IMG/VR virus record: IMGVR_UViG_2778261646_000017
Location: 1 to 16,102 of that record
Origin: a virus
Taxonomy: Duplodnaviria > Heunggongvirae > Uroviricota > Caudoviricetes
Strand: one strand, 5' to 3'
Length of the DNA stretch: 16,102 nucleotides
This document shows, in pieces, positions 4,275 to 12,753 of the stretch. The position numbers and the translations under genes are program-made. The notes beneath the pieces were generated by a model. The model worked only from the letters and a program-made list of their open reading frames with translations. It made no database searches and was not told the origin of the DNA. Position 1 is the first letter of the stretch. The number at the start of each line of letters is the position of its first letter.

Positions 4275-4614
4275 GCTCGTCCTCTTCTTCTGTTTCCGGT
4301 GGATTTTTACGGCGGCTTATCGGGTCAAAACCGAGCAAGGAGGCCATTTTTATCATCACTCTTTCAGCGTCGGATTTTGCGCTTAATGCGGGGTTTCTGC
4401 TCTCGCCGCCCTGACTGTTAACAATGCTGAACCCGCGCGCCGCAAGGTCTGCAACGGCTTTCCGGTAAATGGAGTAGTTGACGCAATACAGTTCCAGATT
4501 GCTCCAGTCGGCGGGGGTCAGGTCTCCCCGTTCCGCAAGCTGCCGCGATTTTTCCCGCCACTGCTTCACGGCGATATCATCCAGGTAGGCGGGGGCTTTC
4601 GGTGGTCTTGCCAT
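4258..4614 (-). CDS. terS: Terminase small subunit, P27-family-like, 118 aa
   Basis: MARPPKAPAYLDDIAVKQWREKSRQLAERGDLTPADWSNLELYCVNYSIY...NPALSAKSDAERVMIKMASLLGFDP with acidic C-terminus; directly upstream of and overlapping TerL. Confidence 0.8.
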   Translation of the reverse strand: MARPPKAPAYLDDIAVKQWREKSRQLAERGDLTPADWSNLELYCVNYSIYRKAVADLAARGFSIVNSQGGESRNPALSAKSDAERVMIKMASLLGFDPISRRKNPPETEEEDELDRLE

Positions 4615-5639: not shown

Positions 5640-5974
5640 TTTTCCGCGCCCTCACGACAAAGAATTTCAAGGCGTGTCCTGGCGGCATCCGGCAGCGGCT
5701 GCCCGATGATATTCAGTACACGCCCCGCCAGCGGCCCCGTATTGACCTTTATCCGGCTGGTGGCGTTGATGTCCTTCCTGTAGCGTATCCATATCCTTAC
5801 CGTTCCAGTCGCCAGTTCTGCACCCGATGAAATGGCCTCCTTGCTGCTGATCATGTTCACGCTTGCCCAGAGTGTGTGACCGTCCACCCACGTTTCGAGT
5901 ATTTCGCCGGTTATATCCCTGGTCTGTTTCAGGGTCTGAATCGTTACCCTGTCACGCAGTCGCCCTATGTTCAT
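5636..5974 (-). CDS. Head-tail adaptor / head-closure (joining) protein, about 112 aa
   Basis: GRLRDRVTIQ...TGEILETW...LWASV...RIWIRYR pattern of the phage head-tail joining family; start chosen at ATG 5974, which forms an ATGA overlap with the portal stop (the ORF track's longer start at 6016 has no SD). Confidence 0.75.
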   Translation of the reverse strand: MNIGRLRDRVTIQTLKQTRDITGEILETWVDGHTLWASVNMISSKEAISSGAELATGTVRIWIRYRKDINATSRIKVNTGPLAGRVLNIIGQPLPDAARTRLEILCREGAEK

Positions 5975-7795: not shown

Positions 7796-8953
7796 TTAAT
7801 CGTCGTCCTGTGGCAGTTCCAGAATCTTGATCGCGTTCGAATCCACCACGCCACCGCCTAAATATTTCTGCGTGAAAATTTTGATGAAGCCCGGCTCTGT
7901 GAGGTTGTCCGGTCTGGTGCGAACACCTGTTTCGTGATCAACAATGTAGTAACCGCGTTTGAAGTCACCCAGGGCAATAACGTTATCAGGCATAAACTCC
8001 AGATATTCGACCGGAAGGCCCAGCAACGTATCAGGATCACCCGCCTGTAAACGGTCGCGCCAGATGTAATCACCGTTCGCGTTCTTCACCTTCTGAAGTT
8101 TTGCGGCCGTCGTGGAGTTAACCACCCAGACCGCGTTTTTGCGATATTTTTTATGTAATGCAAATTTCAGGTCGATCAGCGGGTCCGCAGATGTCCACGC
8201 CAGAGATTCGGAAGGTTTAATTACCTGTAACGTACCAAAATCACGCTCTTTGTCGTTCTTCTCTGCACGGGGTACGGATAAAAAGCCTTTTGCTTTTTTG
8301 TCACCGTCGCCCACAACCAGATCGCTTTCTTCGGTTTCCGTGAAGGTGTCGCCAATCTCACCCGTCAGCCATGAAAGGATGTCCACATCGGAAAAATCCA
8401 CGATTTCCTGTGTGGTGCGCGGGTACGCATAGACCGGATACAGCTTAATGCTCACCTCGTTAATCTGCGGGGTGCTGGTCTGTTCGCGTGCCTTACCCTC
8501 TTCACCGTGGTTAACGGTCGCACCGCCAGCGGAAACAAGCTGCTTAAACTCGTTGCTGCTGATTTTCTTCACGGTACAGATGCGGCGCATGGTGGATTCA
8601 TCCGCCAGCATTCGCATGATTTCGGTGTTCAGCTCGGGGATAACGGTATAACCACCATCAGCGGGAACGCCTGTACTTAATGCGCGGGTTTCACCTGTCA
8701 GGATGTAGTTTCGTAGTTCTGCGGGGTCAGTGGTCTGACTGCTTTTACCTGGCTTGCTGCGCTCTTCGTCTGCAATGGCTTCAAGGCGGGAAATGTCTTT
8801 ATCGAGGGATTCAGCTTTAGCGCGTAATTCGTCAAATTTTGCGCCCTCAGCATCGTTAAGACTGCGGTTTTCTTTTTCCGCGTTCTCCAGCATGTCGCGC
8901 ATCTGATTTTTAATGGCGGTTTTCTGCTGGCGTAATTCGATTATTCTCGGCAT
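7796..8953 (-). CDS. Major capsid protein, HK97-fold with N-terminal coiled-coil scaffold (delta) domain, 385 aa
   Basis: N-terminal 60 aa heptad-rich (LRQQKTAIKNQMRDMLENAEKENRSLNDAEGAKFDELRAKAESLDKDISRLEA); C-terminal body with capsid-like features (…GYYIVDHETGV…); followed by a terminator. Confidence 0.93.
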   Translation of the reverse strand: MPRIIELRQQKTAIKNQMRDMLENAEKENRSLNDAEGAKFDELRAKAESLDKDISRLEAIADEERSKPGKSSQTTDPAELRNYILTGETRALSTGVPADGGYTVIPELNTEIMRMLADESTMRRICTVKKISSNEFKQLVSAGGATVNHGEEGKAREQTSTPQINEVSIKLYPVYAYPRTTQEIVDFSDVDILSWLTGEIGDTFTETEESDLVVGDGDKKAKGFLSVPRAEKNDKERDFGTLQVIKPSESLAWTSADPLIDLKFALHKKYRKNAVWVVNSTTAAKLQKVKNANGDYIWRDRLQAGDPDTLLGLPVEYLEFMPDNVIALGDFKRGYYIVDHETGVRTRPDNLTEPGFIKIFTQKYLGGGVVDSNAIKILELPQDDD

Positions 8954-8960
8954 AAAAAAA

Positions 8961-8990
8961 GTCCTGGGGTTAAGTAAGGAACTCCAGGAC
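8961..8990 (-). promoter_or_regulatory. Stem-loop plus U7 tract immediately 5' of the capsid ATG; the stem contains the AGGA Shine-Dalgarno
   Basis: - strand reads GTCCTGG-(16-nt loop)-CCAGGAC-TTTTTTT-ATG; the only SD-like sequence (AGGA, 8 nt before ATG) is in the 3' arm of the 7-bp stem. Confidence 0.5.
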
Positions 8991-9167
8991 GCGGCAAAAA
9001 CTCAACCGTTTTTCATAAGGAAATCAGCAATCGCACCGATCGTTTTCCCGCCTGGTAATGAATATTGGCGAGAACATTAACAGGCGGAAAAGTGGCCCCA
9101 GCGTCCTGGCACCACGGGCGAGAATAATCATGATTCAGTTCGGGTAAAATATGCCGATCCGGTCAGC

Positions 9168-9193
9168 GAACAACGTGGAACAACCACGAACAA
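9168..9193. promoter_or_regulatory. Phased hexamer element GAACAA-cgtg-GAACAA-ccac-GAACAA, about 215 bp upstream of the capsid gene
   Basis: Three perfect GAACAA hexamers at 10-bp spacing; 9169-9193 is identical to the reverse complement of 14781-14805. Confidence 0.5.
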
Positions 9194-9210
9194 ATAATTT
9201 ACAAAACATG

Positions 9211-9235
9211 ACAAAAAGCCGGATTGCTCCGGCTG
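9211..9235 (-). terminator. Rho-independent terminator after the PerC-like gene (end of the early operon)
   Basis: - strand: AGCCGGA-GCAA-TCCGGCT followed by TTTTTGT, 6 nt after the stop. Confidence 0.6.
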
Positions 9236-9240
9236 TGTGA

Positions 9241-9513
9241 TTATCTGTCCTGGTAATTTCGCCATATTTCATCACCAGCACCATCCATACCCATTTCGGC
9301 ATAAGTGCGATCGACCGCCTTTTTCAGGTCTCCGTAATTATCCGGCGGCTCCGGTGGCCTCTGTGCCTTCCTGGAACATTCCAGCCGTCGCATCGTGATG
9401 TGATGCCGTTCCTTGTCTGTCTCCACCAGTTGCATGACTTCACCCCATCGCGCCGACGCTCTCCGGTAAAAGCCTTTCGCCTCCAGTTCTTCCGCTATGC
9501 GGTCATGTACCAT
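9241..9513 (-). CDS. PerC-like small transcriptional activator (putative), 90 aa
   Basis: MVHDRIAEELEAKGFYRRASARWGEVM... resembles my recollection of the PerC-family N-terminal signature (LE..G.WRRAA.RW); strong GAGGGGGG SD; family assignment not verified. Confidence 0.55.
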   Translation of the reverse strand: MVHDRIAEELEAKGFYRRASARWGEVMQLVETDKERHHITMRRLECSRKAQRPPEPPDNYGDLKKAVDRTYAEMGMDGAGDEIWRNYQDR

Positions 9514-9522
9514 CGCCCCCCC

Positions 9523-9933
9523 TCAGAACGGAATATCATCACCGTAAGGGTCATCGCCTCCCGCTGGTGGCTGATTACCCTGTGTGCCTGTGGTCTTGCG
9601 CCGGCTCCCACCAGGTCGCGCCGTTCTGGCACTGATTACGCTGTCTGCAATAACCTGCCAGCCCTGCCGCGTTTCGCCGTTCTGGCCTGTCCACTGGCTT
9701 ACCTGCATGTTACCCGCCACGCTCACCAGCTCGCCTTTGTGGTGTTTTGCCAGTGCGTCGGCCTGTCTGCCAAACGCCAGGACGGATAACCACATCGTCG
9801 CCTGTCCGTCATCTGCCTGATTGCACGGCAGGGGGACCGCCATGCTTGCCATAGCCATTTGTGTGCCCTTGCTGGTGGTCTTTAACTGCGGGTCAGCCAC
9901 CAGCCGCCCGTAAGCGGCTATCTGTGCTGTCAT
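9523..9933 (-). CDS. ssb: Single-stranded DNA-binding protein, divergent, with canonical acidic DDIPF C-terminal tail, 136 aa
   Basis: OB-fold-like core (YGRLVADPQLK...WLSVLAFGRQAD...KGELVSVAGNMQVSQW), Gly/Pro-rich linker and C-terminal DDPYGDDIPF; ATGA overlap with the upstream gene. Confidence 0.8.
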   Translation of the reverse strand: MTAQIAAYGRLVADPQLKTTSKGTQMAMASMAVPLPCNQADDGQATMWLSVLAFGRQADALAKHHKGELVSVAGNMQVSQWTGQNGETRQGWQVIADSVISARTARPGGSRRKTTGTQGNQPPAGGDDPYGDDIPF

Positions 9934-10187
9934 GATTCCACCTCTCCGGTTTTAACGTTGATGGTTGTTACCTGTTCCGCTTCGGCAATCTCCCGTTCCG
10001 TCAGCGTGGCAAAGTTTGCCGCCGCCGTGGTCATGAATGCGCTTATCAGGTCGGGATGTGCTTTCGCGTATCCTTCCCCCGTGTTGCGGTCGATGATTTT
10101 TATCGCCACTCTCAGCCAGTGCTCTGTAAGGTCAATGGCGCGGTTATGCTGCTTCTTCTGATTATTAAGTTTTCCTGATGTGCGCAT
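9930..10187 (-). CDS. Hypothetical protein, 85 aa
   Basis: ORF MRTSGKLNNQKKQHNRAIDLTEHW...; GAGGGGG SD; translationally coupled to ssb. No family recognised. Confidence 0.55.
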   Translation of the reverse strand: MRTSGKLNNQKKQHNRAIDLTEHWLRVAIKIIDRNTGEGYAKAHPDLISAFMTTAAANFATLTEREIAEAEQVTTINVKTGEVES

Positions 10188-10229
10188 TTTTATTTTTACC
10201 CCCTCGTTTAAAAAGTTTTGAGTTGTGCC

Positions 10230-10465
10230 TCCCCTTGTCTACCTTATCTACCTTACTGGCTCTCATGCCAGTAATGGCGCGGCTTTCAGCGGGGTAGAGT
10301 GCTTTTATCCACTATCTACCCCGTATCTACCTCCCTGTCTGATTCAGGTAAAATCAGGTAGAGAGGGTAGATAGTAGGTAGACAGTGAAAAAAGGCTGTC
10401 TACCTAAGTTAATATACTGAATTAAATGTATTTTTCTTTACTCAGGTAGACAGGGTAGACAGCCA
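10230..10465. repeat. Iteron-type replication origin: at least 11 copies of GGTAGA / TCTACC in both orientations flanking an AT-rich core
   Basis: tgtctacc, tatctacc (x3), ggtagag, aggtagagagggtagatagtaggtagacag, gtctacct, then AT-rich taagttaatatactgaattaaatgtatttttctttac, then aggtagacagggtagacag; immediately 3' of the primase gene. Confidence 0.7.
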
Positions 10466-10475
10466 TTGCAAAAAA

Positions 10476-12224
10476 TTATAAAAACGCGTCGCAATCGTCT
10501 GTTGTTATTGCGTTAGTCTGCGTTACTCCCTTAACTTTCCGCGTAATATATTCATGTCCGTAAACTTTCGCGGCTGGCTTCATAGCCTTGCCAAAGTCAT
10601 TTACGTTTAGCGGTTTGCTCCTGCCTGCGTATGCCATAAACGCCAGATAGACGCGGTAAAGGCTGTTTCTGGTCGTGTACTTCACTGAATCGCCACCGCC
10701 ACCCATCATCAGGCCGCGCGCTTCCTCCAGAAAATTCAGGAACTGGCAAAACTCAATAACCGGATCCGTCTGTTGCTTTATTGCCAGTGCTTCATCACCG
10801 TCACGCTGTTCCAGTAGTAAAGCCCGTGCCTTCTCAGGGTCGGTAAAGTTCGCCAGCAAGCGGCGGATAATGACAGGGATTTCAGCCGCGATCTTTTCCG
10901 GTAGCTCCCTGTCTTTTTCTGCCTCGCTTACGATATTGTCGAAGCGGAAAATAACCCGACGACGTGACACGCCTCCGGCCCGTTCGGTGAATATCATCGG
11001 GTTGTTATTGGTCGCCAGCACCACCGCCCTGATTACCGTAGTGAAACGCTTTTCATATTTCGGGTTGATTTCCACGGGGTCGCCGCCCGTGATTTTCTTG
11101 ATGCCCGTGCCTTCGCCTGTATATTTCGGCTGGTCTGCCAGGACGATAAGACGACTCCCGACAACCTGCGCACGCCCACCAGCATCATCAAGCGATGTCA
11201 TTTCCGCGCTTACCGTGTTTTGTTTCCCCGCTAAAAGGCTGGCGATGTGGGTGAATGTACTTTTGCCGCTCCCGCCGTCTCCGGTGGCCTCAATAAACAT
11301 CTGCCAGTCGTACCGGTTCGCCATAATCATGTACAGCGCGGCACATATACGCATCATCTTGCGCTGGTCTTTTCCGGCTGCGTGATCAAGCCATTTATGA
11401 AAGTTTGGCGCGTTATCGCGGATGTTCTCCCCAGGTGCTGGTGGCGTGTACTCAATGCCGTTGTGCGTGGTGATCCAGTTCTCCGGCGTGTGCGGGGAAA
11501 ATTCCCCCGTTTTCAGGTCAAGCGCACCATTGGCGAACGGCAACAAATCGCCGGACGGCTCGCCCATTGGTTCGGCAATAACTTTTAACGCTTCCACGGC
11601 GTTATTGATTACGCGCTTGCTGAAAGTGGCCCTGTGCTCTGAATAGATCGCCACCATTTCGCGGCTAAGTTCCATTGTGCTGACCGGACACCATACCCCG
11701 CCGCGCCATACGTGAACGATTTCACTTTCCGGATGCACACAAACGCCATCAAATCGACCAGCAAGCATCTGTGCGCGCTCACTGTCTGCCATTTGTGCCA
11801 GTTGCGTATTTTTCTGCTCCGGCATGGTAAGCCCTGCGGCAATATTTTCACGCTCAGCATTCAGATAGCGCCGCCAGTTTTCACACTTCTGGACGTGCAT
11901 TCCTTCGGGGTAAAAATTTGCGTCCTGAATATCTGCCGCCGCCAGCTTCTGACCAATCTTTTTGGTCTCCACCAAATCCAGTTCTCCGGCCTGGTACAGC
12001 CTTACGCGCTTTTTCCCATCCGGAACAATTTTCAGCGCATCAAGTTCGGCAAGCTGATTTGGCCCAAGCCACACAGGCGGCACATTATCGCCGGATGCGG
12101 GGCCGTCCTGCTCCTGCCACTGTTTTGCATGTGACCACGCATCACTACCCGCGAAAATAATTACCTCTGTGTCTTTGTGTTTTATTCCGCGTGGCTGTTT
12201 TTTTACGTTCGGTGCCAGTTTCAT
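10476..12224 (-). CDS. Replication protein: primase / SF3-type helicase (P4 alpha-like, PICI Pri-Rep-like), 582 aa
   Basis: Walker A GDGGSGKST, Walker B-like RLIVLAD, N-terminal primase-like region; ATGA-coupled to the upstream small gene; iterons directly downstream. Confidence 0.88.
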   Translation of the reverse strand: MKLAPNVKKQPRGIKHKDTEVIIFAGSDAWSHAKQWQEQDGPASGDNVPPVWLGPNQLAELDALKIVPDGKKRVRLYQAGELDLVETKKIGQKLAAADIQDANFYPEGMHVQKCENWRRYLNAERENIAAGLTMPEQKNTQLAQMADSERAQMLAGRFDGVCVHPESEIVHVWRGGVWCPVSTMELSREMVAIYSEHRATFSKRVINNAVEALKVIAEPMGEPSGDLLPFANGALDLKTGEFSPHTPENWITTHNGIEYTPPAPGENIRDNAPNFHKWLDHAAGKDQRKMMRICAALYMIMANRYDWQMFIEATGDGGSGKSTFTHIASLLAGKQNTVSAEMTSLDDAGGRAQVVGSRLIVLADQPKYTGEGTGIKKITGGDPVEINPKYEKRFTTVIRAVVLATNNNPMIFTERAGGVSRRRVIFRFDNIVSEAEKDRELPEKIAAEIPVIIRRLLANFTDPEKARALLLEQRDGDEALAIKQQTDPVIEFCQFLNFLEEARGLMMGGGGDSVKYTTRNSLYRVYLAFMAYAGRSKPLNVNDFGKAMKPAAKVYGHEYITRKVKGVTQTNAITTDDCDAFL

Positions 12225-12520
12225 TTTTTACCCCTGAATACGTTAAGCATCTTTTTTATTTCCTGAATATTGGCGCGTGCTTTCTCCCTGCTGGTTGGTT
12301 TACTGCGGGGCGCTGCCTGTACCAGAGAAAAATCACGCCGAAACTGATAAACAGGCATCACGCAATCATATTCGTAGCCTTCACGACGGTAGGTGATGCG
12401 CCGTTCTGCCACGCCTTTAATCGTTACCATGCCGCCATATTTATCGCGGTAAATATCGCCGTTCATAAATTCAGGACGAGCGGGGCCGCTGGCAGTAACG
12501 CCAGAATTTTTATTTTTCAT
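12221..12520 (-). CDS. Hypothetical protein, 99 aa
   Basis: ORF MKNKNSGVTASGPARPEFMNGDIYRDKYGGMVTIKGVAERRITYRREGYEYDCVMPVYQF...; basic C-terminus; no family assigned with confidence. Confidence 0.55.
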   Translation of the reverse strand: MKNKNSGVTASGPARPEFMNGDIYRDKYGGMVTIKGVAERRITYRREGYEYDCVMPVYQFRRDFSLVQAAPRSKPTSREKARANIQEIKKMLNVFRGKK

Positions 12521-12525
12521 GTTTT

Positions 12526-12753
12526 TTATTCTCCGGTGTGCTGCGCTTTATTATTCTCGTGAATTGCCATCACTGTATTTAATTCATTAATAACAGGCGT
12601 TAATAGCGTACGCACGGCAGAAAACATCATTGAATCAGATTCATCGCCACTTTCCGGCACATCAATTAACTTAAGTAGTAATGCGTCCATTTCCTTTGCG
12701 CGGATTAATGCGTTTTCAGAATGAACAAGAACATCAAAGGGTATTTTATGCAT
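12526..12753 (-). CDS. Hypothetical protein, 75 aa (start at the internal ATG with AGGGGGGAG SD)
   Basis: MHKIPFDVLVHSENALIRAKEMDALLLKLIDVPESGDESD...; the longer start offered by the ORF track (12855) has no SD and overlaps the upstream gene. Confidence 0.5.
   Translation of the reverse strand: MHKIPFDVLVHSENALIRAKEMDALLLKLIDVPESGDESDSMMFSAVRTLLTPVINELNTVMAIHENNKAQHTGE

Follow-up and report, generated by a model that had tools for sequence, protein, structure and literature searches.

The stretch of DNA analysed here (hereafter the window, 16,102 bp) extends from within phoQ to the start codon of a gene for a tyrosine integrase. Reading from the integrase, its minus strand encodes AlpA, a DUF4222 protein, a Rep protein of 582 aa, an 85-aa protein, SSB, PerC, an HK97-type capsid protein, a 190-aa protein that we take to be a putative prohead protease, a 403-aa protein that is presumably the portal, and TerL. 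This gene set identifies the window as a capsid-forming PICI, which is located at the phoQ/ycfD site. The sole intergenic gap in this long unidirectional operon is occupied by an array of short repeats, which lies 16 nt from the rep stop codon (10476-10478) and whose distal edge is 51 nt from the start of the next minus-strand ORF (9930-10187), which encodes the 85-aa protein. This protein had no match in Pfam or NCBIfam. Of the seven E. coli loci compared in this work, six have its gene in the interval from ori to ssb, and in the remaining one (L005) no such gene is annotated. When 5,426 complete E. coli genomes were surveyed, the 371-bp ori region was found in 508 of them, each time in the chromosome, and at least 80% of the whole island was found in 128. 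The features of the region are listed in the table.

Table. Features of the rep gene product, the repeat array and the adjoining genes in the window (positions are those of the window unless given as residues of Rep)
Feature	Position	Strand	Basis or remark
rep ('pri-rep', annotated as DNA primase family protein), 582 aa	10476..12224	-	Pfam and PDB matches
Rep N-terminal ~140 aa, TOPRIM-like domain			
Rep D5_N domain	residues 151-281		Pfam
Rep SF3 P-loop helicase, DUF5906	residues 314-415		Pfam
Rep C-terminal winged-helix-type domain, predicted to bind the origin	residues 486-574		1KA8 match
Rep-proximal direct iteron pair, GGTAGAcagGGTAGA	10445..10459	+	starts 9 nt apart; invariant in 7 E. coli loci
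AT-rich spacer, presumed DNA-unwinding element	10405..10442		84% A+T
Single inverted iteron at the far edge of the AT-rich spacer	10399..10404	-	exact search
Three direct iterons at 10357, 10366 and 10377 (spacing 9, 11), with one degenerate copy, GGTAAA, at 10347	10347..10382	+	
Distal half, inner part: GGTAGA at 10293 (+), TCTACC at 10315 and 10326	10293..10331		mirrors 10366-10404
Distal GC-rich spacer, 46-bp class	10253..10292		42% A+T; mirror image of the AT-rich spacer
Distal iteron pair, TCTACCttaTCTACC	10238..10252	-	9 nt apart
A/T tract past the distal pair, TTTAAAAAGTTTT	10207..10219		invariant in the E. coli loci
Gene for 85-aa protein, phrog_1231	9930..10187	-	RBS GAGGGGG at 10199-10205; directly past the origin
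ssb	9523-9933	-	after the 85-aa gene; accompanies rep-ori in the E. coli loci

An exact search of the window for GGTAGA and its complement TCTACC found 13 copies, 11 of which are located at 10238-10459. The other two are single copies, one in phoQ (488) and one in int (15348), and there is no second cluster. Dinucleotide-preserving shuffles gave 3.7 copies per window (sd 1.9), with none of 200 shuffles reaching 13, and for the 222 bp of the array the base composition predicts 0.11 hexamers (Poisson P ~1e-16 for at least 11). The array contains copies in both orientations, TCTACC starting on the plus strand at 10238, 10247, 10315, 10326, and 10399 and GGTAGA starting at 10293, 10357, 10366, 10377, 10445, and 10454. 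The original prediction, which had counted at least 11 hexamers in both orientations just past the replication gene, is in agreement with this count of exactly 11. When the copies are oriented alike, their extended consensus is (A/G)GGTAGA(C/T)AG. The start-to-start spacings of 9, 46, 22, 11, 31, 9, 11, 22, 46, and 9 nt form a near-perfect dyad with its centre at ~10346, and the region as single-stranded DNA has a folding z of -6.2 relative to shuffles. No tandem or low-complexity structure is present in the array. It had also been proposed that the hexamers flank a 38-bp AT-rich core. The most A+T-rich 38-mer of the region, which is joint richest in the entire window, is indeed found at 10405-10442, bordered by an inverted copy (10399) and by a direct pair (10445/10454), but it is not the centre of the array: because nine copies lie on one side of it and two on the other, it is off-centre, in the rep-proximal half.

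Several other elements are found in and beside the array. The inverted iteron at 10399 and the copy at 10445 form the arms CTGTCTACCT and AGGTAGACAG, and in the inner dyad the segment 10293..10331 and its counterpart at 10366-10404 provide 39-nt arms that are 77% complementary. The distal GC-rich spacer contains a hairpin, TTACTGGC-N6-GCCAGTAA, at 10253-10274. Beside this hairpin is a non-iteron block, CAGTAATGGCGCGG[C/G]TTTCAG (10271-10291), which is strongly conserved in all seven E. coli loci, and the spacer sequence adjoining the block varies among them. The distal iteron pair can be aligned with the pairs that end the arrays of Serratia and Morganella described below and both crr repeats of phage P4, in all of which a tract of the form A4-8(C/G/A)T4-8 is located in the same place as the A/T tract of the window. 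This tract, at 10207-10219, may be a component of the origin or, alternatively, of the 5' leader of the 85-aa gene. A DnaA-box-like sequence, TTATCCACT, is located between two iterons at 10304-10312, matches TTATCCACA at 8 of 9 positions and is kept in CFT073; it was rejected as a conserved host-factor (DnaA) site because it is missing in the E. coli loci of greater divergence (L002-L006). A perfect TTATCCACA is present in P4 at 4281-4289, beside crr. The search of Rfam at E <= 1 identified no RNA family, and the sub-threshold matches were limited to microRNA precursors at 10277-10417, which are explained by the dyad symmetry, and a riboswitch at 9897-9919.

The adjacent gene had been described in the original prediction as a primase/helicase gene, and it is the helicase part of this description that holds. 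Rep matched the Pfam families D5_N, DUF5906, and Pox_D5, and its residues 193-430 matched SaPI5 PriRep5 (PDB 7OLA) with an E of 2.7e-14; the gene product is an SF3 initiator-helicase. Residues 133-571, comprising the helicase and the C-terminal domain, are 40.9% identical to P4 α, and the last 90 residues (486-574) matched the origin-binding domain of P4 α (1KA8) with an E of 1.1e-6, so that the parallel that had been drawn with the C-terminal domain of P4 α, which binds iterons, finds support. The first ~140 residues matched no model of Pfam or NCBIfam, their only match being a PHROG without an assigned function. The possibility that this N-terminal domain is a remnant of the P4 α primase was considered and rejected on the basis of an hhalign probability of 0.2%, and what remains is the resemblance to a TOPRIM-like fold. 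The position that we assume to be that of the putative TOPRIM catalytic Glu, placed by eye from the DnaG motif, is occupied by an invariant Ala, and no DxD motif was seen in the alignment of the N-terminal domain. The same domain is also fused to RepA-type helicases in other PICIs, and among the E. coli Rep alleles it is the part that varies most (42-90% identity). Since no recognisable primase domain was found in Rep, the term 'primase/helicase' overstates the sequence evidence, and the label 'primase' is weakly founded.

The ori region of the window is 97.8% identical over 371 bp to that of an island of CFT073 at the same phoQ/ycfD site, and this island is EcCICFT073. The two intergenic regions differ by eight substitutions, none of which is in a hexamer, and all 11 hexamers and their spacings are unchanged. 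The C-terminal domains of the two Rep proteins are 100% identical, whereas the N-terminal domains are only 71% identical. The cassette at 9213-12551 (DUF4222, rep, ori, 85-aa ORF, ssb, perC) is 89% identical to positions 8071-11408 of the CFT073 locus (L001), and these genes are in the same order in EcCICFT073. In contrast, the two islands have unrelated morphogenesis modules: that of the window comprises TerL, portal, protease, and HK97 capsid, and that of CFT073 a capsid and decoration-protein set; the window is a capsid-forming PICI, whereas EcCICFT073 is a classical PICI.

It has been reported that the origin of Gram-negative PICIs is the region directly 3' of the replication initiator gene, and the iterons of EcCICFT073 have been drawn in a figure (Fillol-Salom et al. 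2018, ISME J, PMC6092414). In the same study, pri-ori, pri-Δori, and Δpri-ori were tested on derivatives of a thermosensitive plasmid with rep expressed from an arabinose promoter. The pri-ori plasmid of EcCICFT073 was maintained at 44 °C, whereas colony numbers were significantly lower with pri-Δori and with Δpri-ori (p < 0.0001 in each case) (PMC6092414). For Δori, colony numbers were described as 'significantly reduced' and abolition was not claimed, while the Δrep plasmid gave no colonies; in the island itself, the Δpri-rep mutation decreased transfer ~100-fold (PMC6092414). By use of the primer table of that paper (PMC6092414), the ends of the published constructs were located in the window, at 10472-10492 for the pri-Δori clone and at ~10167-10187 for the pri-ori clone. 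The published Δori deletion therefore corresponds approximately to 10166-10471, with the whole hexamer array inside it. For primer rep-2cNotI, no match was found in the window at up to three mismatches, because the printed primer carries a 1-nt indel relative to the sequence, and its 3' part maps to 10175-10185. The upstream primer rep-1mPstI had no match in the window, in which the corresponding end of the DUF4222 gene differs from that of CFT073. Because the deletion covers the array and the two regions are 97.8% identical, the minireplicon experiment that had been proposed as a check of the original prediction has already been done on essentially identical sequence, and its outcome, maintenance with ori and significantly fewer colonies without it, is favourable to the prediction (PMC6092414). 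The origin in the window is thus already known, having been mapped and shown to work in EcCICFT073 in 2018.

Conservation of the array was analyzed in seven E. coli loci, the identity of their ori regions to that of the window being 75-100%. The mean pairwise identity was 0.88 for the hexamer columns and 0.59 for the rest, 77% of the columns in hexamers were invariant as compared with 26% elsewhere, and when 11 hexamers were placed at random 10,000 times, no placement scored as high. A search of genome contigs with Rep yielded three loci, which were used for a comparison of layout only, since they are too few for a covariation statistic. For the Rep relatives in Serratia aquatilis (53% identical at the aa level) and Morganella morganii (52%), an equivalent array, made of (C)TGTTCA(C), is found right past the rep stop. 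The order shared by these arrays and that of the window, from the rep stop, begins with a pair of copies 9-10 nt apart, followed by an AT-rich spacer of 44-46 nt, a copy in inverted orientation, and direct copies at intervals of one helical turn; past a central gap there is another spacer of 44-46 nt and then a terminal pair. After the central gap, Serratia has a mirror-image set, like the window, whereas the copies of Morganella are direct and unmirrored.

The original prediction had also stated that the iteron would set the replication specificity of the element. In line with this, where the C-terminal domain of a relative differs, the layout is kept and the iteron is another one. P4, Serratia, and Morganella, whose iterons are all of the TGTTCAC type, have C-terminal domains that share 44-51% mutual identity and are only 31-34% identical to that of the window, whereas for the helicase domain the window and Serratia are 71% identical and the identity of P4 to any of the others is no more than 52-56%. 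The C-terminal domain of Rep tracks the iteron type and not the relatedness of the helicase. In EcCI042 (E. coli 042, L011), the SF3 Rep is replaced by a Rep with a RepA/AAA_25-type helicase, 3' of which (5725-5924) there are six AAGTGAG iterons around an AT-rich stretch. EcCI042 provides a third pairing of initiator and iteron at the equivalent position of an island. When the footprint, the layout, the homology of Rep, the covariation, and EcCI042 are considered together, these sequence comparisons argue for the iteron setting replication specificity.

Phage P4 was compared by use of its annotated record (NC_001609). In P4 ori1, the type 1 repeats are direct at 9310, 9320, and 9331, inverted at 9353, and direct again at 9396 and 9406, and the spacer between 9353 and 9396 is 35 bp long and 83% A+T. 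The rep-proximal part of the window array (10357-10459) has the same six-iteron layout, that is, three direct copies, one inverted copy, an AT-rich spacer, and two direct copies, and it can be aligned in register with ori1 (9310-9413) in the same order and orientation. The spacings are 9, 11, 22, 46, and 9 nt in the window and 10, 11, 22, 43, and 10 nt in P4. However, the iterons of P4 (GGTGAACAG) and the window (GGTAGACAG) are two positions apart (2 of 9), and the type 1 octamer of P4, TGTTCACC, is absent from the window array, whose iteron is GGTAGA(C/T)AG. Furthermore, ori1 and crr are ~4.8 kb apart in the P4 record, whereas the window has one cluster composed of two units arranged head to head. 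It is crr that is located directly 3' of α in P4, which is the position of the PICI ori, and the distal half of the window array, like a P4 crr repeat, has a terminal iteron pair followed by an A/T tract. The sequence CTGAAA occurs both in the GC-rich spacer and in the spacers of P4 crr, but at different offsets from the iterons, and was therefore not taken as a sign of homology. A terminator is present between α and crr in P4, whereas none was found after rep in a promoter and terminator scan of the window. The α protein (777 aa) contains a primase domain of ~330 aa that the window Rep is without, and hhalign detected no similarity between the N-terminal regions of the two proteins. In the literature searched, we found no mention of the collinearity of the window with P4 ori1; in the study of Gram-negative PICIs, P4 and PICIs are treated as independently evolved and the collinearity is not mentioned (PMC6092414).

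We consider it highly probable that the array serves an E. coli capsid-forming PICI as its origin of vegetative replication and belongs to the Rep-ori module of the prototype EcCICFT073. The earlier designation of the region as an iteron-type origin is supported by the fit of the array to the definition of the SaPI/PICI ori (PMC9371898) and by its location inside the published Δori deletion (PMC6092414).

Alternatively, the hexamers could be operator or promoter sites for the 85-aa ORF, ssb, perC, and the capsid module, with a transcription factor or an autoregulating Rep as the protein that binds them. Replication initiators often double as regulators. The array also fills the gap upstream of the next gene, and conserved non-iteron blocks are present at 10271-10291 and 10199-10219. 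However, no sigma-70-like promoter was found on the minus strand in 9900-10700, the transcription of Gram-negative PICIs is unidirectional from the alpA end (PMC6092414), and the matching six-iteron unit of P4 is the annotated ori1, in another gene context. Moreover, Δori impaired the maintenance of the EcCICFT073 minireplicon despite arabinose-driven rep (PMC6092414), and since rep was under the arabinose promoter, a loss of rep expression does not account for this defect. It is therefore very unlikely that the hexamers are operators instead of an origin, although the array may have a secondary role in transcription beside its origin function.

It could also be supposed that the cluster is only a cis-acting enhancer resembling crr and that initiation takes place elsewhere in the island. 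P4 crr is located at the equivalent position relative to α, and the distal half of the array is crr-like, with its terminal pair and then the A/T tract. However, the rep-proximal half matches P4 ori1 and not crr, the AT-rich spacer included, and rep and the ori stretch alone sufficed in the plasmid test of EcCICFT073 (PMC6092414). Because there is no second GGTAGA cluster in the window, a role restricted to that of crr is hardly to be expected. Satellites carry cos/pac and att sites composed of short repeats, which brings up the possibility of a packaging (cos/pac) or recombination site, in addition to that of a chance or low-complexity repeat. The probability of any of these is close to nil, since the enrichment of the hexamers is far above expectation, they are conserved in register across diverged loci, the integrase and the island ends are more than 4 kb from the array, and the EcCICFT073 cos sites were tested on constructs (pET28a cos plasmids) separate from the pri-ori plasmids (PMC6092414).

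If the array is the origin of the island, as we favor, replication could proceed as follows. Upon induction, the 582-aa Rep would bind the GGTAGA(C/T)AG iterons by means of its C-terminal winged-helix-type domain. The iterons are approximately one helical turn apart and form two mirrored units, and we therefore propose that Rep assembles on both sides of 10405-10442. Rep would then melt this 38-bp AT-rich spacer and, as an SF3 hexameric helicase, would load onto it by itself, in the form of a double hexamer and with no separate loader. Priming would probably be left to the host, and the unwound strands would be coated by SSB, which is encoded just downstream. The iteron and the matching C-terminal domain would confer the replication specificity of each PICI allele.

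The origin is needed for the amplification of the satellite after induction and hence for high-frequency transfer, and the pair formed by the iteron and the C-terminal domain probably decides which co-resident satellites cross-replicate. For this window, the result is annotation only, and its added value is modest. It also indicates that one Rep-ori cassette serves both classical and capsid-forming PICIs.

The array was also compared with other known origins. The ori of SaPIs and PICIs has been described as a region directly past the 3' end of rep in which 6-12 iterons of five or six nucleotides are placed around AT-rich DNA, and the SaPI Reps as self-loading helicases that bind hexanucleotide iterons via a C-terminal winged helix (PMC9371898). 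The origins of SaPIbov1, SaPI1, and SaPI5 are likewise directly 3' of rep, with hexamers in both orientations and an AT-rich region, and their initiators are likewise SF3-type helicases with a C-terminal DNA-binding domain. In the window, the array is located directly 3' of the rep ORF, the iterons are 11 in number and 6 nt long, TCTACC at 10399 faces GGTAGA at 10445/10454 across the AT-rich region, and the initiator is predicted to be a helicase with a C-terminal winged-helix domain, for which self-loading is predicted by homology. It differs from the SaPI origins in that the iteron is another one, the DNA sequences are not similar, and the AT-rich region is displaced from the centre (nine and two copies on its sides). 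Furthermore, the SaPI5 polypeptide includes a putative primase, whereas the window Rep has a short TOPRIM-like fold without the catalytic residues. The origins of the plasmids pSC101, R6K, RK2, F, and P1 also have repeated initiator sites beside an AT-rich unwinding element, and in iteron plasmids the pair of initiator and iteron sets specificity. The plasmid iterons are 17-22 bp long and mostly in direct tandem, and the plasmid Reps are winged-helix proteins that are not helicases and need DnaA and DnaB-DnaC. In contrast, the sites in the window are 6-9 bp long and in both orientations, and the initiator is itself the helicase. The combination of 17-22-bp direct iterons, a non-helicase Rep, and DnaA boxes that characterizes the classical iteron plasmids was not found in the window.

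With regard to P4, the collinearity of the window with ori1 suggests a common replicon ancestry, which we regard as plausible on the basis of the sequence alignment. A more specific form of this homology would be that ori1-type and crr-type units were fused head to head at the position of crr, that the iteron was retargeted by a two-base change (GGTGAACAG to GGTAGACAG) with a matching change in the C-terminal domain of Rep, and that Rep lost its primase and came to depend on the host DnaG; in our estimation, the evidence for and against this scenario is evenly balanced. Shared ancestry with P4 is a refinement of the origin assignment and does not make the array another kind of element. Since the core of the array is collinear with P4 ori1, it bears on the question of a possible common replicon ancestor of P4-like satellites and Gram-negative PICIs.
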